A stretch of DNA of 64,000 nucleotides from Dipteris shenzhenensis. Its lineage: Eukaryota. The stretch lies in assembly GCA_047967505.1 (NCBI GenBank), contig CM106538.1, one strand, 5' to 3'. The stretch's first letter is position 1. Every line of letters starts with the position of its first letter. Made by a program: the position numbers and the translations under genes. Positions 12,221 through 64,000 of the stretch are shown here, in pieces. The notes under the pieces are model-generated. The model was given only the letters and a program-made list of their open reading frames with translations, had not been told where the DNA came from and did not search any database.

Positions 12221-13259
12221 TGAAAAGTAGAAAGATACTTGCTTTGATCACACACACGACACCCTCATCAAAAAAATAGTAAAATGCATTAACCACTCAC
12301 AAAAGAAACAATCACTCTTAGCACATGGCACTATATTGGCACTGTCAAACTAGGACTTGATTCATGTGTGAAATGCCAAGGTGAAGACAGTCCAATAACA
12401 TGGGAACAAGGATGATTTTTTCATGTTAGTTTTGTTAAGAAGTGAAACTTTTATATTGGCATCAAAAGTTTATATACCCAGATTTGAAACTTTTCCCAAG
12501 ATTTACATATTTTCTTGGAAATTCAAAAGAAATTATATGAAATCATATTATGTTTTGTCAATATCATGAAACTAAAAAAAGTATCTCGATAAACTTTACC
12601 AATATTTTATATTAATGTAAAAGTATAGCTTCCATAAAAACATCCATGGATATGAAAAAGTACTACAACAACATCGACAAAGTGACACCATGCCAAATGG
12701 CCCAAACCTCAACCTCAACAACCCTCCTTAAATCACCAACCTGAATAAGGACAAGGTCCAGAATCACCAAGCCAGAGGTCAGCACCAAAATGACCATGGC
12801 TAGTGGTTCTTGGATAGTCATATTGATGAGCAAATAAATGCAACATGCCAAGAAGATATGGCATAGAACCTAAGGATCCTACATTTGAGAAAAATTGAGG
12901 CAAAGCAATTGACTATGTAGGATGCAAGTGTAGAACACCTTGATGGACCAAACCAACAAAGAGATAGCAATAGATAAAACAATACAGCTTGTATGGCCAT
13001 GAGTCTCAATGTTTGCCATGTCACCCGATGCATACAACTAGCTCAGTGCTTGGTCTGTGCACCGACCCGCTGCTTGCAAGGGTGCTCTCCTTGTGAAGAT
13101 GCCCTCTCTTGCACTCCTTGAGTTTCTTGGCACATAGCATCCTATTAGTGCTTAGTTATGGGAAATGAACATCGTCTACTGAGTTCACTACGAGAGTGGA
13201 CATAACTGTATGAAGACATGTGAACAAGCAAACAAGCTGATAATACGAGGAGAGGAGTA

Positions 13260-29924: not shown

Positions 29925-30239
29925 ATCGTCTTTTGTCCCATTGCCCTTTCCAGGGACCCGCTCCCTGACCAGAGCTCAGATTGCCTCATCAACTTTGCCC
30001 GTCTGTACTCCCTCGGCACGGAACTGTGCAGAGATTCGTCGTCCGCCTCCCTGCTGACTGGTGGAGAGCCTTTCGTGCTGTAACTTTCCGTGATTATGGA
30101 CCATCTGCACTTTGCCATGCCTATCTTATCGGGCCGCGCAAGTCTTCCAAGTCGAGAAGCTCAACGTTGTTTCCTAGGCATAGGAATTTGAGTTGCGTTA
30201 TGAAAATTGGAGCAATCTGTACCTGATATAGAACCCAGA

Positions 30240-30360
30240 ATGAAGACAATTGTGGTGGCGGGAACATGTAGTGGAGTCGGGAAATCAACCATTGCCATCG
30301 GGCTGATGGCAGCCTATTCTCGTCGTGGGTTGAGAGTGCAGCCTTTCAAAATTGGCCCAG
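30240..30360 (+). CDS. cbiA: CbiA-like exon 1 (P-loop)
   Basis: [40 protein letters not shown]; donor AG|GT at 30360/30361, phase 1. Confidence 0.9.
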
Positions 30361-33300
30361 GTCTTCGCTCTCTTCTCATCATTCGTGTGTGAGCCTTATT
30401 GGGACAAGTCATCAGTAGATCTTACTGTAGCTTTATCCCTTTGCAGACTTTCTGGACCCTTTGCATCATATGGTAGCAACTGGTAGAGAGTCTTTAAATC
30501 TCGATACGTGGATGCTAAGCAGGTAACACTCACGTTCATCGTTTGTTATATTCGTTAACGATGTGAGCAAAGCAAGAACAACGCCCATTTTACCGGTCTT
30601 CTTAGGTTTGCGTTCGTTTCAACATATTATGTAACTAGCTGCATTTCTTCATCCATACTTTCCATGACAATGTACATGCTTTGGTTGTTAGGTTCCCGAT
30701 AAGTTTCACTTTGCTGACTTGCATAATGACTATGATGTGTACATGAAAATTTCCTTTGTTGGAGTTGCGTTGACACTTTGATCATACTGCTTCTTTCTGC
30801 AATCTCTTTCAAATTTACCAAATTTGTGACATTAGTTGTTTAATCCTAGGGTAGTCCTACCTAAGCCGTGCCAATCCCAGATTAAACCATGGTTAGCGTG
30901 TTGGGGTGTTACATCAGCGCTAGACCTCCCTTAGACGTCAATCTGAATGATCTTTATCCACCTGCCTTATACCGATCTTGCCTTAGGTGTGGGTAGCTTG
31001 GGATGTAACAGGTAGCAGCATCAGTAAGGACAGCACAGCTGTCAACACTACCATGGCACAACAATAGGTGTCAGGCCACTGCATACTTTGTGAGTTTGTG
31101 CTTTGGTACAGTACTTACAGCAAGAGATCTTGTTTGTATGACTGCTTATTTCCCATATTGCATTTGGATGCGGAAGTTACTGCACCAAGTTGTTGAATTT
31201 ATCCTTAACAGCACCTACAGCGCAACACATATCAGGACACCATAACTTTTGTGGATACCAAAGATGTCATTCTTCTGACTGGTCTCCTTATCGACTGAGG
31301 TAAGGGCATCTAGTTTTTCAGAGAAATATCCATGAACTCAGCTGAGGCATGCTGTGACATCAGCAGCATCCAACAACCTTTTGTGAGCATCCTCAGATGC
31401 ACCATCAACCCACCATGCCCCTCTGTCCTCCACGTCTTCCTCTACCTGCAGTAAAACTTGGAAGCTATTTTACGAATTCGAAGGAGGAGAGAAGTATTTG
31501 GCTGAGTGCTGCACTTGTGTGTCCTTCATGATTTCCATTTCCTCGGTAGCCTATTGACACTCAACCCTAGGCATCTTACCCTCAATCAATGAGACTCACT
31601 ACCAGGGGCAGTTACTTTCTTTGCTATCTTCCTTTTAACTAGCTGCCAGAAGTGCTCTTTGGAGCGTCACCCTTGGGCTGTGTATTTACTGTTTACAAGG
31701 TGGCCATTTCTGCCACACACAAAGCATGAATTTGGCAGAATCTTATAAATGATCTGACTTTTAGCAAGGCCTGATCTAGAAACAATCTCTAGATATTCCA
31801 GAAGTTGATCCGCCAGATCAATCATAACATAGACCTGTGGATTTGTCAGGGGTTCATGAAAGCTTCTCTCTCAATGCCTATTGTCAGAGGTCAAGTGCTC
31901 GCTGTAGCACCTGGCGCAGCAGAAAATGAATGCGAACTCTTTCAAAAACACACTGAATAGTATGCTGTAAATGAAACTATAGTAACAGATATGCAGGAGG
32001 CGAAATTGCAGAATGAACTTCACAAAATACGCACTCTATTCATTTACCAAGGATGAGCACAAAACGTCCAGCAGGTGCTAGTAAAACATAGCTAGGTGTG
32101 GCTGACAGATGACTGAGGGAAGAGGAAGGCTGCTGCTGCCTGTATATGCTTCCCTGTGTGTTGGTGAAGAGGGCTTCAGTGGGATGCATAAACTGAGTCA
32201 AGAGCCTCCTTTTATAGGCATTCCAGCCCAAACCTGGCCGACCAGGTTTAGTCAACCAGCCGACTAGATGCAGTCGACCAGAATAGATCACCCTAACTGT
32301 CAGTTTTGCTGATTGAACAGGTTAGTCTTGCATGTCTTCAAGTGCCTGCATCTGCAGCAAATCTGCTCCGGATGTGCTGCTCCAACTTGTTGCAATCTGC
32401 AACTCTAATTTGCTGGCAGTCACCTCTATTTGAGGACTGGATAATGGTAGAAGTTTGCCAATCTGAGAAAAGAGCGGACATCATGAACATTCTTAGGAGT
32501 AGGCTAGTTTTGGATTACCTCGACCTTCTTGGGATCCACAGAGATGCCTTGAGCGGAAATAACATGTCCCAAATATTCGAGTTGGGTCTTGAAGAACTCA
32601 CTCTTCTCAGTGTTGATGTAGAGAGAATTTGCGCGGAGAACTTCAAAAACTTGGTGAAGATGTTGTTTGTGCTCATGTAGGGATCTGCTGAAAATGAGGA
32701 TGTCATCGAGGTAAACGATGACAAACTTATCGAGGAAAGGCCTGAAGATGTCGTTCATGAGTGTCATGAATGTGGCCGGGGCATTGTTTAACCCAAAAGG
32801 CATGACCAAACATTCATAGTGTCCATACTTTGTTCGAAAAGCTGTCTTGTACTCATCGCCTTCTCGTATGCGAATTTGATGATAACCTGAACGAAGATCA
32901 ATCTTTGAGAATTGTGTTGCGTGTAGAAGTTGATCGAAGAGGTCATCGATGCGAGGCAATGGATACTTGTTTTTGATATTGAGCTTGTTGAGGGCTCGGT
33001 AGTCGATGCAGAGGCGCATTGACTTATTCTTTTTTTCCACAAGTAGTGCAGGAGATCCGAAAGGGCTGCGACTGGGCCGAATGTGACTTTTGTCGAGTAG
33101 TTCGGTCACCTGTCTTTGGATTTCTTCATTTTGAGTGTAAGAAACCCGATAAGGAGGTTTCGACGGTGGATTACTGCCGGGAATAAGTTCGATCGGGTGA
33201 TCCACTGGTCATCGAGGTGGTAACTGCTTTGGCAATTCCTGTGGAAAAATATCCAGGTAGGGCTGGAAAAAAGGTTGGTTGAGGTATTCAGGAGGATCCT

Positions 33301-36300
33301 TTGTTGGTGTCTCCTCTACTGCCGTAACCAATAGAAGTGAAGTCTTTACTTGACGTTTACGAACCCACTTCTTTACTTGTAGGGCAGAGGCAACTGGGGT
33401 TGAAGGAGAGTCCCTAGAACCAGCTAGCTCAATAAGTTTTCCTTGGTGGACAAACTGGATAGTATGGCTGCGAAAACTGATTGATGGATCATAGTCATAG
33501 AGCCATTGGTCAACTGTTGGGCGATTGCGTTGACCAGTGTAGGCTTCCGGAAGTTTGATGTTAAGTCTTTTAGTTTTGGAAGCTTGAAGTAAACGGTAGA
33601 GGGCACGTAGTTCAGTGTTTTCTACCTCAGGTGGGAATGAATCCACATAGTCGTCTGGTTGCGTCACGCCATCCTCTGTATGGGTGGTATTGCGAGAATC
33701 TTGAAGTTGTTGGACTTTTTGGACCAAGTCGGAGATGCTGTTCTGAAGCTGGGAAATTTGAAGTTGCAGTAGTGCTTCGCCTTGTACGTTGACTTCAGGG
33801 GTCTTTTTTGGACTTGAGTCTTTGATCTCTGGAGAGGCTGCACGCGAGTGTTGCGACATATCTGAGGTCCCCGTGAGAAAAGCACGAACCTGCGCTCTAG
33901 TTTGTACCATTCCTGGAAGAGGATTCGGGCTGCTCCCTGAGGTTGCTCATGTTGGAGGGGGCAAGCGAGGCAGAATGGAACCACCCGTGGAAATCTGGTA
34001 AAGGCCTGCAGATTTCTGTCCGGAGGTCCATGTTGCAGTGGGTTGCGAGCATAGTTGCACGAAACGTACGTTTCGTGACAGGAAACGGAAACGGCGAAAC
34101 GGAAACGCCGTTTCGTCAAGAAGCGGCGTTTCGTTTTTGCTGTTTTTTTCAGAAACCCTAAAAACGGGTTTTCTCTCTTTTCTTTCGGATTTCGCCGCGG
34201 CCTGCTCCGTTTTTCGCCGCCTCCTTCCAGAATCCAGCCTCCTTCCAGCATCCTTCAAGCTCTCTCCATCCCGATTCCCATCCTTTGCTCTTGGACCTGC
34301 CCTCACCTCCATCCGTCTCTGAGCTCTCTCCATCCTCTTCATCCTTTGCTCCATCTTCTCCATCCTTGGCAGCCTGCTCTCCTGACTCCATCCCTCCATC
34401 CTTCTTCTCTCCATCCTCTCTTTAATCTTACCTTCTACCTCTCCATCCTCCTCCTCTCCATTCTCCTTCACTTCTACCTCTCCATCCTCTCCATCCTCTT
34501 TTACCTCTATCTCTCCATCCTCCTTCTACAATCTACCTCCCATCCTTTCTCACGAGTCACTTGTGACCTCTCCATCCTCCTTCTCACCTCTCCATCCTCC
34601 TCAATGCCGAGAGATGCTTATTGGGTCCATGTCTCCCTCCTGGATAGTTATAAAGGAGGCGGTGGCTCCAAGAAGTGGAGATGCAACTATTGCGGCGTAA
34701 GCAAGACGGGGTCTGTCACACGGGTGAAAGACCATCTAGCAGGTGTTCCCTGCAAGGATGTAGGACCTTGTGAGTTCGTGCCTACTGCAGTGAAAGGTGG
34801 CCTAGCAGAATGGAAGCGTGCGCGTATGGCAGCCTTGGCTGCAAAAAGTGGAGGACAAGGGCTGCAAGATGAAGAAGAGGCTGCTGACACTGAGCCATTG
34901 GATGATGCCAGCACATTGGGTTCTGCAAAGAGAAGTAGAGGGGCATCAACTACATCGAGCGCAGGTCCTAGTGCCACAAGAACACCCTTGCCACATGGAT
35001 CAATTAGTGTGGATGCTAGTGCGGGGAAAAGAGGATCACTGCAAAGGTCTAGCATTCAAGCACGCTTGCAAAAGCAAGCAGTGAAGGAGGCCACTAGTGA
35101 GCTCACAAAGCTCTTCATACAATGTGCAATACCCTTTCATGTGGCGAAGACTACACGATGGAGGAAGGCCATGAGAGCCGTAAGCCGCATTGGGTATGAA
35201 TGGGAAGGGCCTACATATGAGGCCTTGCGGACAAGAGAGCTAAGAAGAGAGAGGGAATGTGTGGAAGACCAAATGAAGCCCTTGAAAGAGACTTGGAAAA
35301 AATATGGATGCACACTCTTATGCGATGGATGGTCAGATGCACGCAAGAGGAATGTGTACAATATTTTAGTATCTTCTTGCAAGGGAACCATGTTCTTGAG
35401 AGCCATAGATGCTTCCACTGCAGGTACAGTGATTACAGGGCTGTATATTTGGGAGCATTTACGGGCAGCCATTATGGAGATAGGTGTTGAGTATGTGGTG
35501 CAGGTGGTGACAGATAATGGCAGCAATTGTGTGTCAATGGGTGCCATGTTAGAAGATGAGTTCCCTAAGATTGTGTGGACACCCTGTGCCTCACATTGCC
35601 TTGATCTTTTGATCGAGGACCTAGGGAAGATACCTTGGATTGATGCCATCTTCTCCACAGCCCGCAGTATCGTGAAGTTTGTCACGAAGAGACCCAAAGT
35701 CCTCAGCATCTATCGGGCTTACAGTGACCTTGAGCTATTGAAACCTCCAACCACAAGGTTTGCTTACATGTTCATAGTGGTGGAGAGGCTTGTGCGAGTG
35801 CGCCAGGGCTTGTTGCGCACGGTTGTGTCTCGGGAGTGGGGAGATTGGGATGATAGAGGCCAAGCAAAGTCTATCAAATTTTTTCGCATGATCATGGATG
35901 AGTCTTGGTGGAATGAGGCAGAGGCATTAATCAAATCGATTAATCCTATTTACACGGTGCTTCGCATCACAGACATGGAGGGAAGCACATTAGGGCTCTT
36001 GTACGAGTTTATGGACAAGATTGGAGAGGCCCTCAACAGAAACACTTTCCTATCGCCTGATAAGTAAGACTTTTTACTTTTGTAATATGTATAATTATTG
36101 CAGTTACTAAATGGCAATTTGTTATCATGAAGCCTGGAATTTTCAGATATATATTATGTATGTACTTACTACTATTATCTATAGTCTATGAATTTTGCAT
36201 GCATAATGCATTCTAATTTCTTGTGGCATGATTTAGGGTTGAGTCCATCCGTGCTATATGGAATAAGCGGTGGAATTGGTTCCACCGCCCAATCCATGCG

Positions 36301-39300
36301 GTGGCACATGTATTGCATCCGCTCTGGCGCAGTCAAGAGCAATATGAGAATGACGAGTTGGAGGAGGGGATGCAACAGTATCTACAAAATTGGACGGGTG
36401 GTGACTTGGAGATGCAACGAAGACTGGAGGATGAACTTCTATTGTTCCGCAATCATAGCCTCTCCTTTGGTCGACCTACAGCTAGGCTCCGAGAGACACA
36501 GTTGCAACCTGTCTCCTGGTGGGAGAAATATGGCAACTGTACTCCTACTTTGGTAAGAGTCTAAGAGACAAGTTCCAACGCCACTAGTTGGAGCTTAGTC
36601 GTTAAGTAATTTGAAGTTTTATCTACTACAAATATGTTTAAAGTTATCAAGTTCCTGATACTTATCTCGGCTTAATTGGCTTATGGCAGAAACGCCTTGC
36701 TATACGTGTTCTCTCAGAGGACTGCAGTTCCGGTCCTTGTGAGAGGAACTGGAGCACTTGGGCCCTCTTTCACACAAAGAAGAGGAACAGATTGAGCACG
36801 GCTCAATTGGAGCGGTTGGTGTTTTGTCATTGCAACCTCCGTCTCCTTGAGTTCACCGCCGGCTGCCCCGAACCTCGCCAAGTAAATGTAGACAAGGTGG
36901 ACGTGGAGAAGATGGAGGTCATACCAGATATCCCACGGGAGGAGCTGGACATATACACCATGTTGTATGAGGAGCTGTCAGCACCAGCACACCACACACG
37001 ATCATACACTCAACCATCTGGAGATGGTGCTAGTACTTCAGTTGCACCCGATGGTCCTGATCCTGATGTTGATGATTCTTCTTCAGACAGTGACACAGAT
37101 GCCTCGAACTTATCTGAGGACGCAGAGGATGACGATGACGAGGAGGCCATGGATGATGCAGATGATCAGTAGTCCTGCTGTTTTTTTATATCATCCATGA
37201 GTGCTTTTATTTTGAGTCTTGCATGACTCATGAGTCATGAGTCATGAATCATGATCATGAAATTTGTGGACCATGAATCATGATCGTCTATGGAGTCTGG
37301 ACATTGAATACTTTCAAGTTTCAAGTTTCAAGTTTCAAGTTTCAACTTGTGTGCTAAGTTTAAACTTTAAGTACTTCAAACTTCTAAATTTCAGATTCTT
37401 GTAATGCCAAACTTGTTAGTCATGACTCATGATACATGTTGATTTCAGATTATTGAAGCATCATTCAAGAATTTAGAATCATAGAGGCATGAACCATGAA
37501 TGATGCATTGATGCTTGAAGGCTGAAGCCTGAAGCTTCAGCCTTCAAGTATAGATAATTGTAATTTGTATTATGTATGATTTGCACTCTATTGATAATTA
37601 TATTATGTATAAAAAATAAATTTTTATACATAAATTGTATCATATTGCCGTTTCTTCCGTTTCCGTTTCGGCGGAGCCCGGAAACTCCGTTTCTTCCGTT
37701 TCTTCCGTTTCCGTTTCGGCTGGTAACTATGGTTGCGAGGAGCAGATCGGGGCCTGGCTGGTCCGGATTGGAAAACGGAAACAGGGCGCTTTTAACAGGC
37801 TATCTTCATCACGAGAGGAGGGCTGAACTGCTGCTGATCTGGCAGATAATGTAGCGCAACAAAGGGGGGGGCAGGCTGTCTATGACGAAACAGGTTGCAG
37901 ATGTCCAATGCTGGATCACAATAAAGACTGGCGAAACAAAGGGGGGGGAAGGGCAGGCTGTCAATGGCGAAACAGGCTGCAGGCTGGATTGCGATAAAAG
38001 GCGTCAAAGGCTGCAGGCTGGATCACGATGGAGGCTGGCGAAACCAGGCTGCAGGCTTTGCAGGGACTGGCGCTGATCTGGCACTGCAGGCTGGCAGGGC
38101 AACAGGGCCGAAAAACTGGCGAGGGCAGGGGCTGCATATGGCGAGGGGGCAGGGCAGCGAAATGGCGAGGGCAGGGGCTGCGCAAGGGGGTCAACCTGTT
38201 TGACGAAAAAACTGTACGGGCGTGGAAATTGGATCATCCCTTTTGTCATTTCGTTTGTGCTGCCTTAGGTTGGGTGGTTGCCCAAAAAATTAAAGGGTGG
38301 GTTTATTTAACCCTTGGGTATGTAGGGTAGACCTAAGATTTGGGGCTGGGTTTTCCTTTTTAACCCCTCTAGGTACCCTTTTTATAAGTGCTTGGTGTCA
38401 AAAGGTGTGCCTATTCGAAGGGGTGTGACCCTTGGAATAGGTGCACCTTTTCATGAAGGGGTGTGTCCCTGTTTTTAAAAGGGGTGTCCCCACATGAATA
38501 GGTGTGACCTTTTTGCCACGATGGGGTGTGTCCCTTGGGTGAGGAGTCAAGACTCTTCATCAAAAGGTGTGTCCGATGGTGGAAAAGGTGCGTCCCTTGA
38601 TTTTGGGACAGCCCAAGCACATGAAAAGACACGATTTTTGTCGTGTCCATTCACATCAACTCGTGATGTGTGGGAGATGGAGAGGCCATTGATGACTTTA
38701 GGCAGGGTTGGCGCTAAAAATTTTTACGCTCATCCTCTCCATCTCTTCCATGCACAATGTGTACGGATGTCCTTCTAGCGGAAAAAGATGTATCAGATAG
38801 GCGCTAGAAGGTGGGAGGCATTTCCTACAGGCAGGAGCGAAATTTGCTCTGATACCACTGTAAAAAATCCTAGATTTACTATATTTAGAAATGTGCTAAG
38901 GAATAGAAAGGAGACTGAAATAGCAGAGAACAAGGAATAATTGTTTGCTTGAGTGTCTGTAGTGTATCTGTAGTGTGTCATCCATACAATTGGGCCTCTC
39001 TTATATAGAGAGTGAAGAGTCACACATGAAAAGGTGTGTACTCCAAAGTGTATGTGCATGAAGAGGTGTGTACCCCTTGTGAACGGTGTGACCCTTGATG
39101 AGAGGGTACATTACAATAGGAATGTCTCTTCAATAGAATGTCTCTTGTGAAGGGTTGTGCCTCATAGGAAGTGTCCCGTCGAAAGGGCATAGGATTGTGC
39201 CTCATAGGAGGTGTCCCGTCGAAAGGGCATACCCTTCCACAAGTGTCCATTTATCAAACCATCCATAAGTCTAGAAATAGAGAAAGGAATACGTCACAGA

Positions 39301-45001: not shown

Positions 45002-45046
<45 letters not shown>

Positions 45047-57000: not shown

Positions 57001-60000
57001 CAACGTGCCGTGACCGAAAACTATCTGAGCTAACTGCTCGCACACGGAGGTATAGACCCCCCCGCTCCTCCCCTGTGCGCCGATCGAAGGCTCCCAATAA
57101 GTGTAGGAGCGTCCAGGGAGAACCTTCCCGCAGCTGCGGGCATGAGCCGCAGAAAGCTTGTGCTCCTGGAGCAGCAGTACATCCAATCGACCAATCACTG
57201 CAGGCTGAAGTTCCTGACGCAAAATGAGCTTCCTGGGACCACGGGTGCTCGAAGAGTGAAACCCGTTCACATTCCAGGATACGAGGTGTAGGCTCATGGA
57301 GAGGGATGGGGGGCTGCGAACAGCTGTCTGCTCGCAGTCGAAGTCGAAGAAGAATCAGACATATCGGAGTGGAGGCGCTGCCGCTTGTGAGAAGGTTTGG
57401 AGGGGGAGACGGGGTCGTCCTGCCCGTTCTTCAACACCTTCAGCAATGGCGAGAGGCCTCTAGTGCCATGAGCAAATGCTTTCTCGAGCCAGCTCGAGAT
57501 CTCTGAAGTGGTCATCCCGTAGAAGGTTCGGAGTTTCTGTTGGGACCAAGCTCTGACATCCTGGGGAAGAGGCCATGCCAGGGGGGGTCTGAGGATCACG
57601 ATCAATCGGAAACGTTTGGCAGCGCAACGCCACCGCAAGCGCACATCGCCCTCGGACCACTGAGTCTCGAGGAGCTGCCCACCGGACGGGCCTATCCAGG
57701 AGCAAATCTGGGCGTGTGTCTGCTCTCTGAGAGCCTCCCACACCGAGTCGTCTGTCCAGGTCTCGGTGCCATCGCTGAGGAACGTGAAGGCGAAGCTAGG
57801 GCCATCCCTGGGAGCCAAGGCAGCAAGCTTCCCATCCGCCCCTTTGCGGAGCATGAAGATACTAATGTCGAGACAAGCCGGGAAGGTCCCAAGGTCGGCC
57901 ACATCCAGGTAGTCCCAGGGGCCAGATCTGTAAAAGTCTCGAGGGAGCTCTCTCTCCTGGAGCTGAGACCCAGCTGAGTCTGCCACTGAGGGGCTAGCGG
58001 GAAGGGAAACCTGCTCCACTGGTGGTACAGACTCCGGGTGTCTTACAAGCGGGGGGGGAGGGGGAGGAGGCTGCGGGATAGGCGACTCGGGCTCCACGGA
58101 GGCGACTGGCGGAGAAGGTGGAGGAGGTGGAACGGAGGCTGCACTCGGCTGGGAAGGCGACGGTGCAGCTAACTCTGTAGGAGGGGCGAGGGGAGCAGGG
58201 GGGGGAGGGGGATGGGGATGCATCTGGAACTGGGGCTGAGGGGGAGGGGGAGGGGGAGGGGACTGAGGGAAAGGAGGCGGGGGCTGAAACTGCGGGGCGG
58301 GCGAAGGGGGGGGGGGAAACTGGGGAGAAGGCGGGGGGGTGGGAGAGAGGAGGATCTGAGGCTGTGGAGGGCGGGCTGCCGTCAAAGAAGAAGCTCTCCC
58401 AGGTCCCTGGGGCATCTGCCTGTCAGGTCTCTGGAGTACTGCTGCAGGAAGGGTGACCTCTGCCTCCTTGCCTTTATCCGAAATCTTCTTATTCTTTCCT
58501 CTTTTCCTTCGAACCTCGGTCCAACCGCCCACTACCTCTGGCCCAGGCTCCGACTGCCTCGGCTCCTCCTGACGTGGCTGTCCGGGGGGGGGAGGTGGGG
58601 GCGGAGGGGGCGGGGGCGGGGAGGGTCGAGACGAGCTGGCAAAGCGTGGACAAGCAGCCGCCAAGTGCCCAAAGCCATGGCACCGCAGGCACTGACCTGG
58701 CTGTCCGGTGACTATCATGCTCTGGGTGATACTGCCGGCACCTGTCACGATCTCGATCACTGCAGGGAGAGTCGCAGGATCCGCCACAGCCACACGGACT
58801 CGGGGAGCTCCTGCCGTGGTCACCGCGTCGGCAAAGGTGTCGTGCATAACCCAGCCAAAATGGGAGCCCAAGTCCCTGACAATCGGCCGCAGCTCAGTAG
58901 CAAGCCCTGGAAAAACTAGTGTCACTGGGTGGCGAGGTATACGGAACCGAGTATCGAAATCCGCTGCGCTGAAACCACGGTACCACGGGACTATCATGAT
59001 GATCTTCCCATCCACCGATGTGGGGGAACTGGCAATCAGATTGCTCGCAGCTTTCTCACTGGAGAGTTTGAGCCAGAAGATGCCCCTTCCCATAAGGGCC
59101 ACCTCCTCAATGTGGCCATCCTCTAGCAAGAGAGTGGACTGGAGCCAGTCCCTGATGGTAGACCTGGAGGGGGAGTGTCCAATGACTCTACCGTAAACAG
59201 AGGTACGAGCAAAGTCACTGGCTACCGCCTGAACACGGGATGATTGTTGCTCTGTCAGGATAACGCGGTAGGCATCTGGAGAGGGAGGGTCCGACTGGGC
59301 CTCCGGATCCGGGCTGGGGGCCGCCATACCGCCAAGACTAACTGCAAGCTTCCGATGAAGAAAAACAGGCTGCCACCCAAGAAGGGGATGAAGCGGCGGT
59401 GGAGCCTGGAGGTGAGGCGGGCGAGGCGAAATGAAGGGTCGGAGGGGTCGAAGCGGAGGGCGGGGCGAAGGCTGCGGGATGCGGGGAGTACGGAAGGGGG
59501 CGAGAGGGCGGGGGGGGGGTGAAGTTGGAATGGCGGGGGTGGAGGGGTGAAGCGGGGGGGCGAGGGGAGCGGAATGAGGCGGAGGCGGGTGAAGCGAGGG
59601 GGTGAAGGAGCAGCGAGGGGGCGGGTTGGAGCGGGGTGGATGGCGAGGGAGCAGCGAGGGGCGGAATGGAGCGGAGGCGGGGCGAGGGCGAGGCGGGCTT
59701 AAAAAAAAAAAAAAAAAAAGGACGAGGCGAGGCGAGGCGGGATGGAGCGGAGGGGGCGGTTGGAGCGGCGGCGAGGGGGGGTTGGAGCGGGGGCGAGGGG
59801 CGGGTTGGAGCGAGGGGGCGGGATGGAGCGGAGGTAAGGGGGCGGGATGGAGCGAGGGGGCGGGTTGGAGCGAGGGGGCGAGGGACGAGGGGCGGGTTGG
59901 AGCGAGGGGCGGGTTGGAGCGAGGGGGCGGGTTGGAGCGAGGGGGCGGGTTGGAGCGAGGGGGCGAGGGGCGGGTTGGAGCGAGAGGGCGGGATGGAGCG

Positions 60001-63000
60001 GAGGCAAGGGGGCGGGATGGAGCGAGGGGGCGGGATGGAGCGAGGGGGCGGGATGGAGCGAGGGGCGGCTGGAGCGGAGGTGAGGCGAGGGGTAGCGGGG
60101 TGCCGGCGGGGGGGGAGGAGAGGGGACGGGGGTCGAGGGCGGACGGGAGGGGTGGAGGTGGTCGCGGCGAGGGGGGGGGGGGGAGCGAGGGGGGAGGTAG
60201 GGGCTAACGGCGAGGGGGGGAGGGGAAGCTCGCAGGAGCTCTAACGAGACACAGAAAGTTTACGCGAGCCATTGCATCAACCAATCTCAGACATGATGAT
60301 GGCTTGCCACCATTTGCAGGTGCATTGTTTCCAGGCAGGGGACAGGCTCCCTAGGTCTGCCTATGTGCTGCGTGGAAGCTCTTGGAGGCGCCTAGGGTTG
60401 TGGGTCCTCTGCTGCGCACTATGGAGGGCAGTGTGGGGGTCTGTTGAGTTGGCCTATGGGTAGGGCGGGCCAGTCCCTTTAGGGCTGTATGGAGCAGCAT
60501 GTCCATCAGTGAAGCACAGGATTTCGTCTGCCTACTACCCTTTGTGCAACGGTCTTGCAGAATAGACTAATGGAACACTGTGTGAAGTTATTGCTAAGAT
60601 GATCTAGAGGACCAGATCTGAATGGGAAAAGTGGCTGCTTTGTGGGCCTATTGTATTACATATAAGGTGGCTACAAGGTACTCTCCATTTCACTTGGTGT
60701 ATGGGACAGAAGCAGTTTTGCCAATTGAAAGGTTGCATGAGCAAAGGCGAGAGGCGCTTATGGCCAATGAAGTGTCTCAAAGGGCTATGAAAGCGAGAAT
60801 GGATAACAGAAGGAGATCTAGTTCTGAAATATGATAGTAGACTGGACCATCATTTAGACAAGAAGTTTTTAGTCAGATGGGAAGGCCCATTTGTTATCTT
60901 AAAAGCTTATGCAAATGGATCTTATGATCTGAGGGAGCTTGGCTAGCAGATGCCTATCGAACGGGTCAATGGATTTAGCTTGAAGTTCAAAGAAAGATAA
61001 GATGTATGATTTTTGCTGCTGATTTACAACTGGTTGCAGCGTTTATGTACCATCATTATTGGCATCATCATCGGACTTGGATGAGCTGTCCACTGCTTTA
61101 GAAGATTGTGGCATACTGTTTGTTCGGAAACGATTCATTCTCTTAAAAAAGGACATCTTGCTCTTTAGGTGCTTCTGCCCAAAATACATTTGGCACATTT
61201 ATATCCTTGAGCATGCATCTGGCAGATGCAATAAGATGATGATTTTTCCTCCCAAACTAGGCACCAAGGCTTTGCTACGTGGGTTGCTTGGATCTGCGTG
61301 TCGCACAAGGAAAACCCAAAAACACCAAAAAGTTGAAGAAAAGGCTACCTTCCCTCTCGTGCTTCAGTCCGAGCATTGAACATGCTACCCCGTTATGACA
61401 CCCGTTATAGCCTATGGGAAATTTTCCTAAGAAGTCCTTCCCTGGGATGCTCCAAAATCCAACCTCTTGGGCATGATTTTCCACAACAGAACACTTCCAA
61501 CTGCCTGTTGTGACGATTTCTTCCTGTTCGGCCATCTGCTCTGCCGGCAGTTGCAAAGCAGCACTTTCTGTTGCATGCAGTCGCGTTTTCAAGCTCGGTC
61601 CCCACTTCTGGTTTTCCCAGTTGGGTTCTGGCCTGCAGTTGCTTCCTTAGGCAATTGCGGCCTTCCTTGCCGCCGCCGCTATGTGCGGGCCTTCCTTGCT
61701 GTGTCATCCTGCCTGCTCATGCCTTGGTGCTGCAAGTCTACGAAACTGTTTGTTGGCTTGTTCTTCTCTGCTGTGGCAGGTTACCCTGGTTATTTGACCA
61801 GTCTCATTGCCGGAGAGCTTTCTTTCCAGCTTCCTCCCTCTTAATGCATGCCTCTCTCACACCCTTCATGCAAGACTGCCTCAAGCTTTGAAGATTCATA
61901 GTTGCAAGTGGAAGGTGTGCTCTGATACCAAATATGAAAGCAAGGAGTGGGAGGAAGCTCAAAGCAATAGATTCAACAACACACGCAAAAGTGTGAAAGT
62001 ACAACATAAGTATGAAACCCTGGAACTAACCCTAATGATTTGGCACCTAAAATCTAGGAGACCTCACCAGTTCATAGAGCATATGTGGTTGAGGTGCTTA
62101 ACTGAATACGTAAGAAAAATATGATTAGGGCCTAGTGAGATATGGACGGTAAAGTACACACGGTCCTGCATGCCATTATAACCATTAGGATTTTATCCTA
62201 CAAAGCAACATATTAGGTGTGAATGAGCTCACAGCCTGTTGCCTACGTGATTTTATGATAAAAGAACTGTATTTTTATGCTCGAGATGTCAGAGTCTCTT
62301 CCTGTCTCATGCAGACATTTGATAGATTACTTTTTTTTGACAAATGGTGTGGCCTGATACAATGTATCTAATACGAAGTTGTATCATTTCCTGACAGATG
62401 CTGGTGCAGAGCTCGTTTACTTTTCACCGCTGAAGGATTCCCTACCCTCTAGTCTTGATGCTATTTTCTTTGGAGGTGGCTACCTTGGCCTTTATCTGGA
62501 CCGCCTATCAGCCAACAAGCAGCTTTTGTATGCTGTCCGTGCATTTGCCGATGCTGGAGGTATCGTGTATGGTGAATCAGGTGGTCTGATGTACCTATCA
62601 CAAGGAGTTGAGGTGCTTTGATGGGCTATATACCTCTTTTCTTTGTTATGCATGCTTACATAAAATACCGACCAAATGGAATTAGGATCTTTTCTCCATT
62701 AACGTTGTCCGTCGATTGACTTGTATTGCAGCTGTGTGGGGAATTCTTTGAGCAATGAAGCAATCCTATCTTCTGTCTGTAAACAGGGTCAAGATATGCA
62801 GTCATTTCCAATGTCAGGGGTCTTCCCATTTTGGACTCGATTTGGAGAATCAATAAGAACTGGTTATGTGAAGGTATTGGTTGTTTTGAGGTGCTGGCGT
62901 CTAAATTATTTTAGATCTTCATTTATCCTAATACTGCGAAAGTTATTATGTGCTATATGGTTTCTGTTTGGCATTGCATCTGTTGATCTCATGCTTCTGT

Positions 63001-64000
63001 GCATTTTCCATATTTTTTCTCGTCTTGTGATCTCATTTTCCTTATGACAATGGAAACAGGTGACGCCTCGAGATAATTGCGTGATTTTCCCAGCTGAAAT
63101 AGGAGAGATTCGAGGCTTTATGTACTCTTCTAGTGAGATTTTCTTCCCAGATGGAACTTCTATTGACACATGCTGCAAAGGGTAATGTAATACCAAGAAT
63201 TGCACAGCCGGATTGTATTTTATTATTTTGCAAACAGCATTAAGACATCATGATGGTCAATTATTTACTAATCCTGCAGAGTGTCCTTCTAGCCTTGCAT
63301 GTACTCTCTGATTATTGTCAGGAAAGTTGAGCATATCATTATATAAACAGTGGACCATGCTGTTGGTTAAGAGAGAGTCATCTTGGCTTTCAATGTTTTG
63401 TACAATACCTTAGGGCATTCAGCAGGCTGAATTTTCTGTATACGTGGTCAGGTTCATTATAAATACTGATCAAGGCAGAGCACATATGGAATGGGAGGGA
63501 TACATGCAAGGGAATGCTATGAGCAGTTTGGTGCATCTTCACTTTGGTAGCAATCCAAGCGTGGCATATGCTTTGGTGGAGCGTTGTAGGTTGGTTGCCT
63601 CTTTAAGCTAGCACTTCTGGAACTTATGGGACATGATTACTTGCCGATGCTGCATGGTAATAATGATCTATGCTTGAGAGAGAAAGTGCTTGTTTTTATC
63701 TTTTCTCAGTTGGAATAAGCAAATGGATACATTGGTGGATGCAGGATGGATCGGACAAAAGCAGCAGCTGTTGCTGCGGCTTCAGCATCAGCTGTGGCTG
63801 GAGCAGGCCCTGCAGCTGCTGCTGCGGCAGGTGCTGCAGCTGCTGAAGCTGTTGCTGCTGCCTTGGGTGAGTGTGGAGAAATTGTGCCATATTCCAGCAT
63901 AGGCATGGCTTTCAATATGAAGGATCTTCCATATCAGACTATCAATAGAATGGGCAGTACTCGTCTCACCTTACCTTTCAAGCAAGGAGACGACTGGAAA
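30240..64000 (+). CDS. cbiA: Intron-containing cobyrinate a,c-diamide synthase-like (CbiA/CobB family) protein, 3'-partial; exons 30240-30360, 30447-30522, 40397-40652, 40877-41252, 62398-62612, 62787-62873, 63060-63181, 63452-63589, 63745->64000
   Basis: Spliced translation gives collinear CbiA/CobB motifs: [17 protein letters not shown] (deviant Walker A), [109 protein letters not shown]. All introns are GT-AG with matching phases and there are no in-frame stops (about 549 codons in window). Confidence 0.9.
30447..30522 (+). CDS. cbiA: CbiA-like exon 2
   Basis: ttgcag| (D)[24 protein letters not shown](R) |gtaac; too short for the ORF track. Confidence 0.9.
32504..34041 (-). mobile_element. 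Ty3/Gypsy (Tf2/chromovirus-like) gag-pol fragment in intron 2
   Basis: Clean RT core ([45 protein letters not shown]); gag start MVQTRAQ; in-frame TGA at 33209-33211; capsid, protease, RNase H and integrase missing. Confidence 0.9.
34050..37731 (+). mobile_element. hAT DNA transposon, apparently complete (3682 bp)
   Basis: 8-bp TSD GTTGCGAG at 34042-34049 and 37732-37739; termini CATAGTTGC...GTAACTATG; subterminal AAACGG/CCGTTT arrays. Confidence 0.95.
34604..37172 (+). CDS. hAT transposase, 752 aa spliced (34604-36063, 36237-36552, 36690-37172)
   Basis: BED finger (WRCNYC...HLAG...C), CDGW and VTDNGSN (D, D), CASHC, WWEKYG, CERNWS (E) and dimerization domain; GT-AG introns in phase; no stops. 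Confidence 0.9.
38846..39256 (-). mobile_element. LTR (about 38859-39256, TG...CA) with adjacent tRNA-iMet PBS
   Basis: Minus strand reads TGATAAATGG...TTTTTACA g TGGTATCAGAGC; PBS at 38846-38857. Confidence 0.7.
39290..39930 (-). mobile_element. Ty1/Copia RT remnant
   Basis: [26 protein letters not shown]...[13 protein letters not shown]. Confidence 0.8.
40397..40652 (+). CDS. cbiA: CbiA-like exon 3
   Basis: tggcag| [28 protein letters not shown]...AGVILNK |gtaag. Confidence 0.9.
40877..41252 (+). CDS. cbiA: CbiA-like exon 4
   Basis: ttgcag| VSGPSH...[22 protein letters not shown] |gtaat. Confidence 0.9.
42236..44997 (-). pseudogene. hAT transposase pseudogene (spliced, frameshifted)
   Basis: BED finger [34 protein letters not shown]; frameshifts near 43500 (MEG/ATLGLL) and near 43190. 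Confidence 0.85.
45329..48380 (-). mobile_element. RTE/RTEX-like LINE, 5'-truncated, inside the second hAT
   Basis: [61 protein letters not shown]; 3' end with AATAAA and (TTTC)n tail on minus strand. Confidence 0.9.
50400..52774 (-). mobile_element. LTR-like non-coding sequence with PPT at 52763-52774
   Basis: Minus strand GGGGGGGAGAAA followed by TGTCAC (PPT then LTR start); ccgtacagc subrepeats; boundaries uncertain. Confidence 0.5.
51418..52124. repeat. 148-bp near-identical direct repeat (51418-51565 and 51977-52124)
   Basis: One mismatch seen (ttagagga vs ttagggga); period 559 bp. Confidence 0.9.
52907..57297 (-). CDS. L1 ORF2 (APE endonuclease, RT, zinc-binding domain) with one frameshift near 53430
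   Basis: [67 protein letters not shown]...[10 protein letters not shown]; continues in the 52907-53464 frame (WHIWTSRC). Confidence 0.9.
57294..59327 (-). CDS. L1 ORF1 protein (RRM/DUF4283-like region, CCHC knuckle, Pro-rich linker), 677 aa
   Basis: Open frame; [14 protein letters not shown] knuckle; immediately upstream of ORF2. Confidence 0.85.
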   Translation of the reverse strand: MAAPSPDPEAQSDPPSPDAYRVILTEQQSSRVQAVASDFARTSVYGRVIGHSPSRSTIRDWLQSTLLLEDGHIEEVALMGRGIFWLKLSSEKAASNLIASSPTSVDGKIIMIVPWYRGFSAADFDTRFRIPRHPVTLVFPGLATELRPIVRDLGSHFGWVMHDTFADAVTTAGAPRVRVAVADPATLPAVIEIVTGAGSITQSMIVTGQPGQCLRCHGFGHLAAACPRFASSSRPSPPPPPPPPPPPPGQPRQEEPRQSEPGPEVVGGWTEVRRKRGKNKKISDKGKEAEVTLPAAVLQRPDRQMPQGPGRASSLTAARPPQPQILLSPTPPPSPQFPPPPSPAPQFQPPPPFPQSPPPPPPPQPQFQMHPHPPPPPAPLAPPTELAAPSPSQPSAASVPPPPPSPPVASVEPESPIPQPPPPPPPLVRHPESVPPVEQVSLPASPSVADSAGSQLQERELPRDFYRSGPWDYLDVADLGTFPACLDISIFMLRKGADGKLAALAPRDGPSFAFTFLSDGTETWTDDSVWEALREQTHAQICSWIGPSGGQLLETQWSEGDVRLRWRCAAKRFRLIVILRPPLAWPLPQDVRAWSQQKLRTFYGMTTSEISSWLEKAFAHGTRGLSPLLKVLKNGQDDPVSPSKPSHKRQRLHSDMSDSSSTSTASRQLFAAPHPSP
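59620..60075. repeat. GC-rich tandem repeat array (about 18-bp unit) in the L1 5' UTR
   Basis: Unit ggcggg(t/a)tggagcgaggg repeated more than ten times; A19 run at 59701-59719. Confidence 0.85.
60500..60990 (+). mobile_element. Gypsy integrase remnant
   Basis: [50 protein letters not shown]. Confidence 0.8.
61919..62202 (-). mobile_element. Short LTR (about 61935-62202) with tRNA-iMet PBS
   Basis: Minus strand TGTAGG...CTTTCA tatt TGGTATCAGAGC; PBS at 61919-61930. Confidence 0.65.
62398..62612 (+). CDS. cbiA: CbiA-like exon 5 (glutamine amidotransferase-like domain)
   Basis: gacag| (D)[13 protein letters not shown]...GGGYLG...[16 protein letters not shown] |gtgct. Confidence 0.9.
62787..62873 (+). 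CDS. cbiA: CbiA-like exon 6
   Basis: aaacag| [29 protein letters not shown] |gtatt; matches the xPMxGxxP...GY segment of CbiA. Confidence 0.85.
63060..63181 (+). CDS. cbiA: CbiA-like exon 7
   Basis: aaacag| [40 protein letters not shown](G) |gtaat. Confidence 0.75.
63452..63589 (+). CDS. cbiA: CbiA-like exon 8
   Basis: gtcag| [45 protein letters not shown](R) |gttggt; EGY...HLHF.SNP is the CbiA C-terminal motif. Confidence 0.8.
63745..64000 (+). CDS. CbiA-like exon 9 (Ala-rich linker, continues past window)
   Basis: tgcag| [85 protein letters not shown]; phase-compatible, open to window end, GCN codons vary at third position. Confidence 0.6.

Follow-up and report, generated by a model that had tools for sequence, protein, structure and literature searches.

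A spliced and transcribed CobB/CbiA-like gene of Dipteris shenzhenensis that appears to encode the N-terminal half of a fusion protein found across eukaryotes

The window, a stretch of 64,000 nucleotides from Dipteris shenzhenensis (assembly GCA_047967505.1, contig CM106538.1), carries a gene for a CobB/CbiA-like protein from position 30240 onward. The exon blocks were obtained by a tblastn search of the window with P0001, the closest relative of full length, as the query, which returned nine colinear blocks on the plus strand; exon boundaries were set by reading the junctions and were then checked by script. Joining the nine exons, from 30240 to the window end, yielded 549 codons (1647 nt) with no stop, and GT..AG ends were found on 8/8 introns, whose lengths are 86, 9874, 224, 21145, 174, 186, 270, and 155 nt. 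An in-frame stop lies 13 codons 5' of the ATG at 30240, and the N-terminus carries neither a transit nor a signal peptide. Exon 9 is open at the window end, and the gene extends beyond base 64000. By the tblastn blocks and the scripted junction check, the start, the nine-exon count, and the span given in the original prediction were all correct. The features are as follows.

30240..30360, plus strand: exon 1, ATG start and synthetase-domain (CobB/CbiA-like) P-loop (Pfam CbiA PF01656, 7.9e-12)
30447..30522, plus strand: exon 2, second part of the conserved substrate-site motif Gly-Pro-Asp...Asp-Pro
30523..40396, plus strand: intron 2, 9874 nt, GT..AG, with transposon remains
40397..40652, plus strand: exon 3, synthetase-domain block Glu-Gly-x-Met-Gly-Leu-x-Asp-Gly, conserved
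40877..41252, plus strand: exon 4, variable inter-domain stretch, then the start of the GATase_3-like domain
41253..62397, plus strand: intron 4, 21145 nt, GT..AG, with transposons inside
62398..62612, plus strand: exon 5, GATase_3 core (Pfam GATase_3 PF07685, 4e-11); Ser337 codon at 62577-62579
62787..62873, plus strand: exon 6, both flanking introns bridged by contigs of X1, X2, and X3
63060..63181, plus strand: exon 7, degenerate version of the prokaryotic Arg-Gly-His-Glu-Phe-His-Tyr-Ser block
63452..63589, plus strand: exon 8, C-terminal His-x-His-Phe block; the CobB-like domain ends here
63745..64000, plus strand: exon 9, conserved Ala-rich helix and start of a disordered linker; cut by the window end

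Exons 1 and 3 are identical to P0001 at 36/40 and 73/86 residues, respectively. The Gly-Pro-Asp...Asp-Pro motif straddles the junction of exons 1 and 2 and is formed only by splicing. Intron 2 contains an open reading frame with an RVT_1 domain at 32504-33208 (minus strand) and one with DUF659 at 34079-36067 (plus strand). Intron 4 contains DUF659 frames at 43470-45315 (minus strand) and a LINE frame of 1320 aa at 53392-57354 (minus strand) with Exo_endo_phos, RVT_1, and zf-RVT domains.

Expression was assessed with contigs from four public runs (X1 to X4), whose library types are guesses and which include no stranded RNA library. Contigs from three of the four (X1, X2, and X3, from three separate studies) bridged 4/4 predicted introns in 62200-64000, exactly at the predicted ends, and the splicing proposed originally thus has contig support across the introns between exons 5 and 9. 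Contig depth was 0 within all introns of this segment and 5-32 in the exons; therefore, a processed retrocopy was rejected as the source of the joined contigs. A loose contig end before exon 5 (X1, X2, and X4) matched the last 30 letters of exon 4 in 29/30 positions; intron 4 rests on this end, and introns 1-3 rest on colinearity with P0001 and GT-AG sites. The X1 contig continues 2205 nt past base 64000, and the full transcript is put at 4.4 kb. The gene in the window is thus a real one of the nucleus, which is both transcribed and spliced.

The X3 contig, which derives from a related species, was also used for comparison of the coding sequence. The listed changes between it and the window gene comprised 17 synonymous and 5 non-synonymous ones, 20/22 of them at codon position 3, giving a pN/pS of about 0.09 for the 22 of ~40 differences that lie away from piece ends. 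Within exons 5-8, the GATase_3-like part, 11 synonymous and 2 non-synonymous changes were listed. These figures point to purifying selection and bear out the earlier view that the gene has been kept intact.

The family assignment was examined with Pfam and NCBIfam profiles. A CbiA-type P-loop domain followed by GATase_3 was found on the window exons, and the same order was seen in P0001 and in two further relatives, P0005 and P0013. On NCBIfam profiles, for which the scores belong to these relatives and not to the joined protein of the window, P0001 reached 381.6 bits with NF002204 CobB (cut-off 254) and 347.8 bits with TIGR00379 (cut-off 261.4), and P0005 and P0013 likewise exceeded both cut-offs. 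The CbiA/CobB membership originally proposed is thus upheld by the Pfam matches on the exons and by the score of P0001 above the CobB cut-off. P0001, whose frame of 1048 residues is intact, shares 76.7% identity with the window protein over 549 aa.

By the architecture of its orthologues, the protein is not a stand-alone CbiA but probably the first half of a fusion of about 1000 residues, in which a CobB/CbiA-like amidotransferase is predicted to be followed by an Ala-rich helix, a long disordered linker, and a C-terminal binding domain. This last domain, of the Fe/B12-type periplasmic-binding-protein kind, would lie beyond the window, and its presence in D. shenzhenensis is likely from the orthologues and from the extension of the X1 contig. 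In the predicted fold of P0001, both domains were confident, residues 498-717 were disordered, and the Ala-rich helices had a pLDDT of about 91. The model of its C-terminal domain matched BtuF (TMt 0.78) and haem/iron binders (TMt 0.74-0.86), with the haem binders PhuT, ShuT, and BhuT among the best matches. The domain is predicted to be of the cluster-A periplasmic-binding-protein type, with the fold of BtuF and haem binders and no signal peptide. Its Peripla_BP_2 Pfam score in P0001 was just under the cut-off (25.4 vs 27.5). The modelled fold agrees with BtuF but also with binders of haem and iron siderophores; a different tetrapyrrole or a metal complex could therefore be the ligand. A sequence search of the PDB returned no solved CobB/CbiA relative; the sole match was a weak one, of the binding domain to 4m7o.

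The active-site residues were then compared in an alignment of the window protein with 7 prokaryote-like and 27 eukaryotic or unnamed fusion rows. All synthetase-site motifs were present, namely the P-loop Gly-Lys-Ser/Thr, Gly-Pro-Asp-x-x-Asp-Pro, and Glu-Gly-x-Met-Gly-Leu-x-Asp-Gly. The glutaminase nucleophile, the Cys of the Glu-Cys-Gly-Gly block, was replaced by Ser at residue 337; no differing letter was listed at this codon in X1, X2, and X3, all of which cover it. With Ser in place of the nucleophile Cys, the usual glutamine-dependent chemistry of CbiA/CobB enzymes cannot be assumed. Some hydrolases in this class of folds can use a Ser as their nucleophile, which leaves some room for glutaminase activity in the window protein. 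The conserved His of the Arg-Gly-His-Glu-Phe-His block was also lost, and the His-x-His-Phe block close to the C-terminal end of the CobB-like domain was kept. In the Cys column, Cys occupied 56/56 prokaryote-like rows and 38/49 eukaryote or fusion rows. The three nearest relatives had lost it too (P0001 Ser, Diphasiastrum Ser, and Selaginella Ala), the residue was Gly in two Riccia species, Elliptochloris, and five unnamed fusions, and Marchantia and mosses retained the Cys. The loss of the Cys is repeated and, in the sampled rows, was seen only among eukaryotes.

Several known systems resemble parts of this protein. The eukaryotic fusion orthologues share its N-terminal architecture and the Ala-rich segment after the CobB-like domain, are colinear with it over the nine exons, and group with it in trees; they differ in an identity to the window of about 45-80% by exon and, in Marchantia and mosses, in having Cys where the window has Ser. 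The CobB/CbiA a,c-diamide synthases, which require ATP and glutamine (PMC7242693), have in common with it the CbiA and GATase_3 domains, the P-loop, and the Asp...Asp and Glu-Gly...Asp-Gly motifs. In contrast to them, the window gene is spliced and eukaryotic, its product has Ser for the nucleophile Cys and a degenerate His-Glu-Phe-His block, and it is fused to the Ala-rich helix, the linker, and, by orthology, the binding domain. CfbB, the Ni-sirohydrochlorin a,c-diamide synthase of coenzyme F430, catalyses a reaction of the same kind as CobB/CbiA (PMC7242693) and is homologous over the full length. Identity with CfbB was rejected, as the orthologues scored 316-408 bits (P0001 316.3, P0005 396.9, and P0013 408) against the 560-bit cut-off of NF033195, and the methanogen rows were far from the eukaryotic group in the tree. 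DsrN, a CbiA/CobB homologue described as the sirohaem amidase of dissimilatory sulfite reductase systems (PMC10504309), acts on a non-corrin tetrapyrrole, and this family can therefore switch substrate. It was likened to the window protein by description only, the trees holding no sequence labelled DsrN; the dsr context is absent here, and among the nearest prokaryote groups the loci L026 and L035 lie in cobalamin clusters. BtuF, PhuT, ShuT, and BhuT share the modelled fold of the P0001 C-terminal domain, whereas that domain is devoid of a signal peptide, is joined to an enzyme, and lies outside the window. The algal protein CBA1, also compared with the binding domain of the fusion by description only, is described as resembling BtuF in structure (PMC10828217) and carries a signal peptide; in the Chlamydomonas CBA1, no Pfam domain is present (PMC11439496).

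The homologues found include proteins of green algae and mosses, as the original prediction had mentioned. Named orthologues of the fusion came from Marchantia, Riccia, Physcomitrium, Ceratodon, Diphasiastrum, Selaginella, Chlorokybus, Spirogloea, and chlorophytes, and the fusion was also found in oomycetes and dinoflagellates with added Kelch repeats, and in an ochrophyte. The range thus covers streptophyte and green algae, liverworts, mosses, lycophytes, oomycetes, and dinoflagellates; no seed plant was named among the matches listed. In the trees, the eukaryotic rows formed one group with a support of 99, within which the window protein, P0001, Diphasiastrum, and Selaginella formed a subgroup (support 89-91). 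A domestication specific to plants, as originally suggested, is therefore not what is found; chlorophytes, oomycetes, dinoflagellates, and an ochrophyte have the fusion too, and the eukaryotic rows all fall together.

The nearest sampled prokaryotes in the trees were Actinomycetota, followed by Acidobacteriota (3 rows; one Binatota row was added in the second tree). In the nearest rows (L003 and L041, Actinomycetota), binding-protein genes directly adjoin cobB. In the acidobacterial loci L026 and L035, cobB sits in cobalamin clusters with CobQ, CobU, CobT, CobC, BtuR, a TonB receptor, and FecCD; no cob gene lies near it in L023, the third locus from Acidobacteriota. A plastid (cyanobacterial) origin was rejected on this sampling: the three cyanobacterial rows (L068, L071, and L079) stood away from the eukaryotes, which leaves the endosymbiotic acquisition first considered without support. 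The best bacterial homologues of the binding domain had 45-49% identity and no signal peptide, and they flanked a cobB-like gene in 2/2 fetched loci. The cobB of L001 and L002, beside Entotheonella-type binding-protein genes, was rejected on identity as the gene closest to the CobB-like half of the plant protein (36-37% vs 45-48% for other matches), so that, in the sample, the nearest relatives of the two halves are not the same. The occurrence of bacterial pairs of cobB and a binding-protein gene suggests that such pairs were the source of the fusion.

From the sequence and its relatives, we consider it probable that the protein acts as a salvage, repair, or carrier device for a corrinoid-type tetrapyrrole, working independently of glutamine hydrolysis in this plant lineage. 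The synthetase half would still bind ATP and the carboxylate of a corrinoid-like tetrapyrrole. The carboxylate might then be amidated with free ammonia, or the ligand might simply be held and handed over, and the tethered binding domain would work jointly with the synthetase half. Such a device may derive from a bacterial gene pair of cobB and a binding protein and would have dispensed with glutamine hydrolysis in this lineage. The corrinoid link of this reading comes from the cobalamin clusters at L026 and L035 among the next-nearest prokaryotes. A B12 role is not obvious, since mosses and lycophytes keep the gene and have no reported B12-dependent enzymes: in the available part of a recent survey (PMC11439496), such enzymes are reported only for hornworts, and two accessory proteins for liverworts. 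The full claim, that a vascular non-seed plant keeps under strong purifying selection a corrinoid-handling machine with a CobB-like ATP-dependent module, a BtuF-like domain, and no glutamine hydrolysis, is put forward as a rather unlikely one at this stage.

Among the alternatives, the likeliest is a pseudo-enzyme or carrier for a non-corrinoid ligand (haem, sirohaem, another tetrapyrrole, or a metal chelate), in which ATP would drive the CobB-like half as a clamp or regulator, with the binding domain serving as the sensor. We regard it as possible though doubtful. The matches of the modelled domain to PhuT, ShuT, BhuT, and iron binders are no worse than that to BtuF; the catalytic Cys was repeatedly lost in eukaryotes; DsrN acts on sirohaem (PMC10504309); and the gene persists in mosses and lycophytes, for which the available part of the survey reports no B12-dependent enzyme (PMC11439496). 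However, P0001 scored above the cut-off for CobB and below that for CfbB (316 vs 560 bits), L026 and L035 sit in cobalamin clusters among the nearest prokaryote groups, and synthetase-site residues that a mere clamp would not need are kept. Another alternative is a glutamine-dependent a,c-diamide synthase with full activity, in which Ser337 would be the nucleophile and the substrate would be a corrinoid or of the sirohydrochlorin type, as in bacterial CobB/CbiA/CfbB. The two-domain architecture, the intact synthetase motifs, the retained His-x-His-Phe block, and the 11 synonymous against 2 non-synonymous listed changes in exons 5-8 would all agree with this. It is nevertheless quite improbable, given the Cys in 56/56 prokaryote-like rows and the additional loss of the conserved His of the Arg-Gly-His-Glu-Phe-His block; furthermore, the Ala of Selaginella and the Gly of the two Riccia species, Elliptochloris, and five unnamed fusions are incapable of acting as nucleophiles, and the family therefore tolerates the loss of glutaminase chemistry.

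Two further explanations concern the status of the gene itself. A decaying relic, whose function went with the loss of B12 metabolism and which is becoming a pseudogene, would account for the loss of the Cys nucleophile and one conserved His, for the binding-domain Pfam score of P0001 under its cut-off (25.4 against 27.5), and for the lack of a named seed plant among the matches listed, which suggests eventual loss. This explanation is largely refuted and has a very slight chance of being right, as 549 codons are open across nine exons, spliced transcripts occur in several runs, the listed changes against the relative are 17 synonymous vs 5 non-synonymous, and the 76.7% identity is to a protein that itself has an intact frame of 1048 residues. 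Bacterial contamination or an assembly chimera has nothing in its favour beyond the bacterial ancestry of the family and is refuted: the eight introns of the gene have GT-AG ends, eukaryotic transposons fill the two long ones (9.9 and 21 kb), its contigs are spliced, and its closest relatives are plant proteins. The nuclear plant gene seen in the original prediction stands on the same introns, contigs, and transposons.

The usual view is that plants live without vitamin B12. Here, a plant grouped with lycophytes has kept a homologue of a B12-pathway enzyme, probably joined to a binding domain of the B12/haem type, and the gene is spliced, transcribed, and under constraint. In a literature search that left supplements aside (those of PMC11439496 and PMC10828217 may list CobB-like proteins among CBA1-like hits), no functional study of a eukaryotic CobB-like protein and no characterised orthologue was found. 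The only mention encountered was a CobB-like transcript in one prymnesiophyte, in the available part of PMC4057078. The recent survey traced B12-linked proteins to hornworts and liverworts (PMC11439496); 'CbiA', 'CobB', and 'cobyrin' have 0 occurrences in its main text, and it therefore did not include the CobB-like family.

The window alone adds one more orthologue to a family whose members public databases already contain, with names given automatically. The same fusion across green algae, oomycetes, and dinoflagellates makes it a conserved eukaryotic protein for which no function has been described, with clear ligands and reactions to test, and the repeated loss of the glutaminase Cys in eukaryotes only is a natural experiment on its role. 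If the ligand is truly a corrinoid, B12-related biology in land plants would reach well beyond hornworts and liverworts, whether as binding, as repair through re-amidation, or as the sensing of bacterial corrinoids from soil or symbionts. In that case, the eukaryote-wide fusion would represent an intracellular step so far missing from the corrinoid salvage of algae, oomycetes, and early plants.

From 30.2 to 64 kb, stop-to-stop frames of the + strand hold CobB/CbiA-like pieces, among them a CbiA P-loop domain in the frame 30204-30392 (7.9e-12, Pfam) and a GATase_3 domain in the frame 62358-62621 (4e-11, Pfam). Comparison of the window with P0001 (1048 aa), the closest full-length relative in the protein collection, gave nine colinear blocks, and the exon limits were set from the junction sequences and then checked by script.

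Exons of the CobB/CbiA-like gene (intron n lies between exons n and n+1)
30240-30360, +, exon 1
30447-30522, +, exon 2
40397-40652, +, exon 3
40877-41252, +, exon 4
62398-62612, +, exon 5
62787-62873, +, exon 6
63060-63181, +, exon 7
63452-63589, +, exon 8
63745-64000, +, exon 9, running to the window end

All eight introns start with GT and end with AG, and the spliced frame of exons 1-9 comprises 549 codons without a stop. The ATG lies at 30240, with an in-frame stop 13 codons upstream; introns 2 and 4 measure 9874 and 21145 nt. The coordinates, the nine exons and the 33.8-kb span given in the original prediction are therefore right.

Public sequencing runs were searched with 62398-64000, and four of them (X1-X4) were mapped on 62200-64000; their library types are guesses, none being recorded as RNA. 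In runs of three studies, X1 (a contig of 4413 nt), X2 and X3, contigs leave out precisely the four introns predicted between exons 5 and 9, each with GT..AG ends, and contig depth was 0 in these introns versus 5-32 on the exons; X4 gave a single short contig, on exon 5 only. The splicing claimed earlier is thus borne out at these four junctions, from libraries of guessed type. In X1, X2 and X4, the sequence before exon 5 matches the last 30 letters of exon 4 at 29 positions, which supports the 21-kb intron 4. The contig mapping covered exons 5-9; for introns 1-3, the evidence is the colinear match to P0001 and the splice sites. Upstream of exon 5, the X1 contig extends 1388 nt, of which exons 1-4 account for 829 nt; downstream, it passes base 64000 by 2205 nt, which places the end of the transcript well outside the window. 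Short (31-letter) high-depth contigs of X2 and X3 also match the GCN-rich stretch of exon 9 and probably come from other Ala-rich transcripts.

Transposon-domain ORFs were found inside both long introns; 5 of the 12 ORFs scanned had a match and 7 had none.

Transposon ORFs in the long introns
32504-33208, -, RVT_1 ORF in intron 2 (domain scan)
34079-36067, +, DUF659 transposase-like ORF in intron 2, open for 662 aa (domain scan)
43470-45315, -, DUF659 transposase-like ORF in intron 4, broken into two frames (domain scan)
53392-57354, -, uninterrupted LINE ORF of 1320 aa in intron 4, with endonuclease, reverse transcriptase and zf-RVT

The open frames suggest that the intron-4 LINE is a young insertion. 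Its region spans 53392-60203 (-), a 969-aa ORF, rich in proline and without a Pfam match, precedes the 1320-aa ORF, and the GC peak of the window (0.655, at 58-60 kb) falls here. Upstream of the gene, no long conserved frame was seen by eye in 1-30000; a reverse-transcriptase-like fragment was read by eye at 11799-12296 (-), and a TG/CA-type simple repeat lies near 20.6 kb.

The best matches to the window protein are not stand-alone enzymes but proteins of ~1000 residues with CbiA, GATase_3 and a C-terminal Peripla_BP_2 (Fe/B12 periplasmic-binding) domain. Named matches come from liverworts (Marchantia polymorpha, M. paleacea and two Riccia species), mosses (Physcomitrium, Ceratodon), lycophytes (Diphasiastrum, Selaginella), streptophyte algae (Chlorokybus, Spirogloea, Mesotaenium, Chara) and several chlorophytes, and, with extra Kelch repeats and PF17653, from oomycetes, dinoflagellates and Triparma. 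In this last set (P0143-P0149, P0015, P0152), the CobB-like enzyme is fused to the Kelch repeats and PF17653 with the binding domain present or absent, unlike the plant architecture. No named seed plant occurs among the 120 matches listed, many of them nameless; scoring was confined to the 8000 candidates with the most words in common. The relatives P0001, P0005 and P0013 (Chlorokybus) score 382-480 bits with the CobB model NF002204 (NCBIfam, cut-off 254) and 316-408 bits with the NCBIfam model of CfbB (cut-off 560). Over 549 residues, the window protein and P0001 share 76.7% identity, and exon 9 encodes the same Ala-rich segment as is found after the CobB-like domain in land-plant orthologues. 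The window should therefore hold the gene's first half, with the binding domain predicted downstream of base 64000. The Ala-rich segment itself (63760-63870) is nearly unchanged from liverworts to this plant. The interpretation as a spliced eukaryotic CobB/CbiA-family gene holds, given the Pfam domains, the contigs and the transposon-filled introns; a stand-alone enzyme is unlikely, its relatives being fusions. The gene is orthologous to a fusion widespread among eukaryotes, a family whose annotation has so far been automatic.

An AlphaFold2 model of P0001 (35-row alignment, mean pLDDT 75.5) is confident over residues 1-497, including two Ala-rich helices at 461-495, disordered over 498-717, and confident again over a domain at 718-1048. 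The Ala-rich helices are modelled as packed against the enzyme domain. In Foldseek searches of the PDB, the C-terminal domain resembled cluster-A binding proteins (TMt 0.86 for 5joq, 0.83 for 4m7o, 0.81 for ShuT 2r7a, 0.78 for Vibrio BtuF 5ysc and 0.74 for PhuT 2r79), and the N-terminal part resembled CTP synthases and GatD/MurT; a PDB sequence search returned no solved CobB or CbiA.

The active site was examined in an alignment of the window protein with 27 eukaryotic/fusion rows and 7 prokaryote-like rows. The window protein keeps the P-loop and the Gly-Pro-Asp-x-x-Asp-Pro and Glu-Gly-x-Met-Gly-Leu-x-Asp-Gly blocks. In the Glu-Cys-Gly-Gly block, the Cys gives way to Ser in the window protein (residue 337), P0001 and Diphasiastrum, to Ala in Selaginella, and to Gly in both Riccia species and Elliptochloris; it is kept in Marchantia, mosses, streptophyte algae, the other named eukaryotes and all 7 prokaryote-like rows. 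The Ser codon is covered by the X1, X2 and X3 contigs without a differing letter. The window protein, P0001, Diphasiastrum and Selaginella have a degenerate version of the prokaryotic Arg-Gly-His-Glu-Phe-His block. In a larger set of 105 rows (46 taken as every second match of 420-500 aa, ten hand-picked bacterial fusions, 27 named eukaryotes, 21 other fusions and the window), the Cys is present in 56/56 prokaryote-like rows, so labelled by length and domain make-up and not by taxonomy, versus 38/49 eukaryote/fusion rows; of the remaining 11, three have Ser, one has Ala and seven have Gly. Judged from the alignment, the ATP/substrate half looks intact and the glutamine-splitting half appears to have no nucleophile.

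The X3 contig, from a related organism, differs from the window at ~40 letters, of which the 22 away from piece ends were scored. Twenty of these fall at codon position 3, and 17 are synonymous and 5 non-synonymous (192 synonymous and 627 non-synonymous sites in exons 5-9). The resulting pN/pS of ~0.09, from 22 of ~40 differences and one related organism, agrees with the proposal that the gene has been kept intact. In the GATase_3-like exons 5-8, 11 differences are synonymous and 2 non-synonymous; therefore, the domain lacking the glutaminase Cys is still constrained. The one X1-only difference (63910) is synonymous, as is, by hand reading, the exon 4 end difference common to X1, X2 and X4.

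CobB-like domain trees were built from 28 eukaryotic rows and cobB from named prokaryote genomes (FastTree, 109 rows; IQ-TREE quick search, 58 rows), with arbitrary roots, limited sampling and labelled DsrN left out. All eukaryotic rows lie on one side of a branch with support of 99; their sister is a pair of Actinomycetota MAGs, loci L003 and L041 (98-99), followed (88-92) by Acidobacteriota, with one Binatota row in IQ-TREE. In FastTree, three cyanobacterial rows are placed elsewhere, away from the eukaryotes. The branching order within eukaryotes approximates organism relationships, and the window clusters with P0001, Diphasiastrum and Selaginella (89-91), a placement suggestive of a vascular plant that is not a seed plant.

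The C-terminal domain of Chlorokybus P0013 has stand-alone bacterial homologues (45-49% identity) of 323-332 aa, which start directly at the first strand of the fold and so are without a signal peptide. At two loci of one homologue (Entotheonella and a MAG), a cobB-like gene stands between two binding-protein genes, with no other cob gene within ~6 kb; this cobB-like gene (36-37% identity) is not the plant enzyme's nearest relative. Two binding-protein genes at L003 and one at L041 directly and divergently adjoin cobB. With such neighbours at L003, L041 and the Entotheonella and MAG loci, the pairing of cobB with this type of binding protein therefore pre-exists in bacteria. Two- or three-gene clusters of cobB-like and signal-peptide-less binding-protein genes, apart from other cob genes, were seen in Entotheonella, a MAG and an Actinomycetes MAG (L001 5923-9255, L002 4029-7456, L003 97-3629); they may be a corrinoid-handling module of their own.

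Some of the nearest prokaryote relatives have a corrinoid context: L026 and L035 lie in classical cobalamin clusters (CobQ, CobU, CobT, CobC, BtuR, TonB receptor, FecCD), and the third acidobacterial locus, L023, lacks both binding-protein and cob genes in its surroundings. The plant protein probably still binds ATP and a corrinoid-type carboxylate. Salmonella CbiA is able to use ammonia, and the bound carboxylate could be amidated here with free ammonia; alternatively, the protein might serve as a carrier or hand-over device working with the tethered binding domain. The ligand might instead be haem, sirohaem or a metal chelate. In the available portions of the sources, CobB, CbiA and CfbB use ATP and glutamine to amidate corrinoids or Ni-sirohydrochlorin at the a and c acetates (PMC7242693), and sirohaem amidation requires DsrN (PMC10504309). 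The fusion does not follow the B12 enzymes: hornworts are reported to have METH with five accessory proteins, and liverworts two accessory proteins (PMC11439496, available portion), whereas the fusion gene also occurs in mosses and lycophytes. CBA1 is a different protein, which bears a signal peptide (PMC10828217, PMC11439496, available portions). In the literature as available, supplements excepted, we found a CobB-like sequence in one prymnesiophyte transcriptome (PMC4057078) and no study of what a CobB-like protein does in a eukaryote; an already characterised function of the orthologue, which would have spoken against the original prediction, was likewise not found there.

What this window adds is a family member with very long, transposon-filled introns and direct splicing evidence, and a glutaminase Cys lost from the cluster of the window protein, P0001, Diphasiastrum and Selaginella, in a gene that is still constrained.
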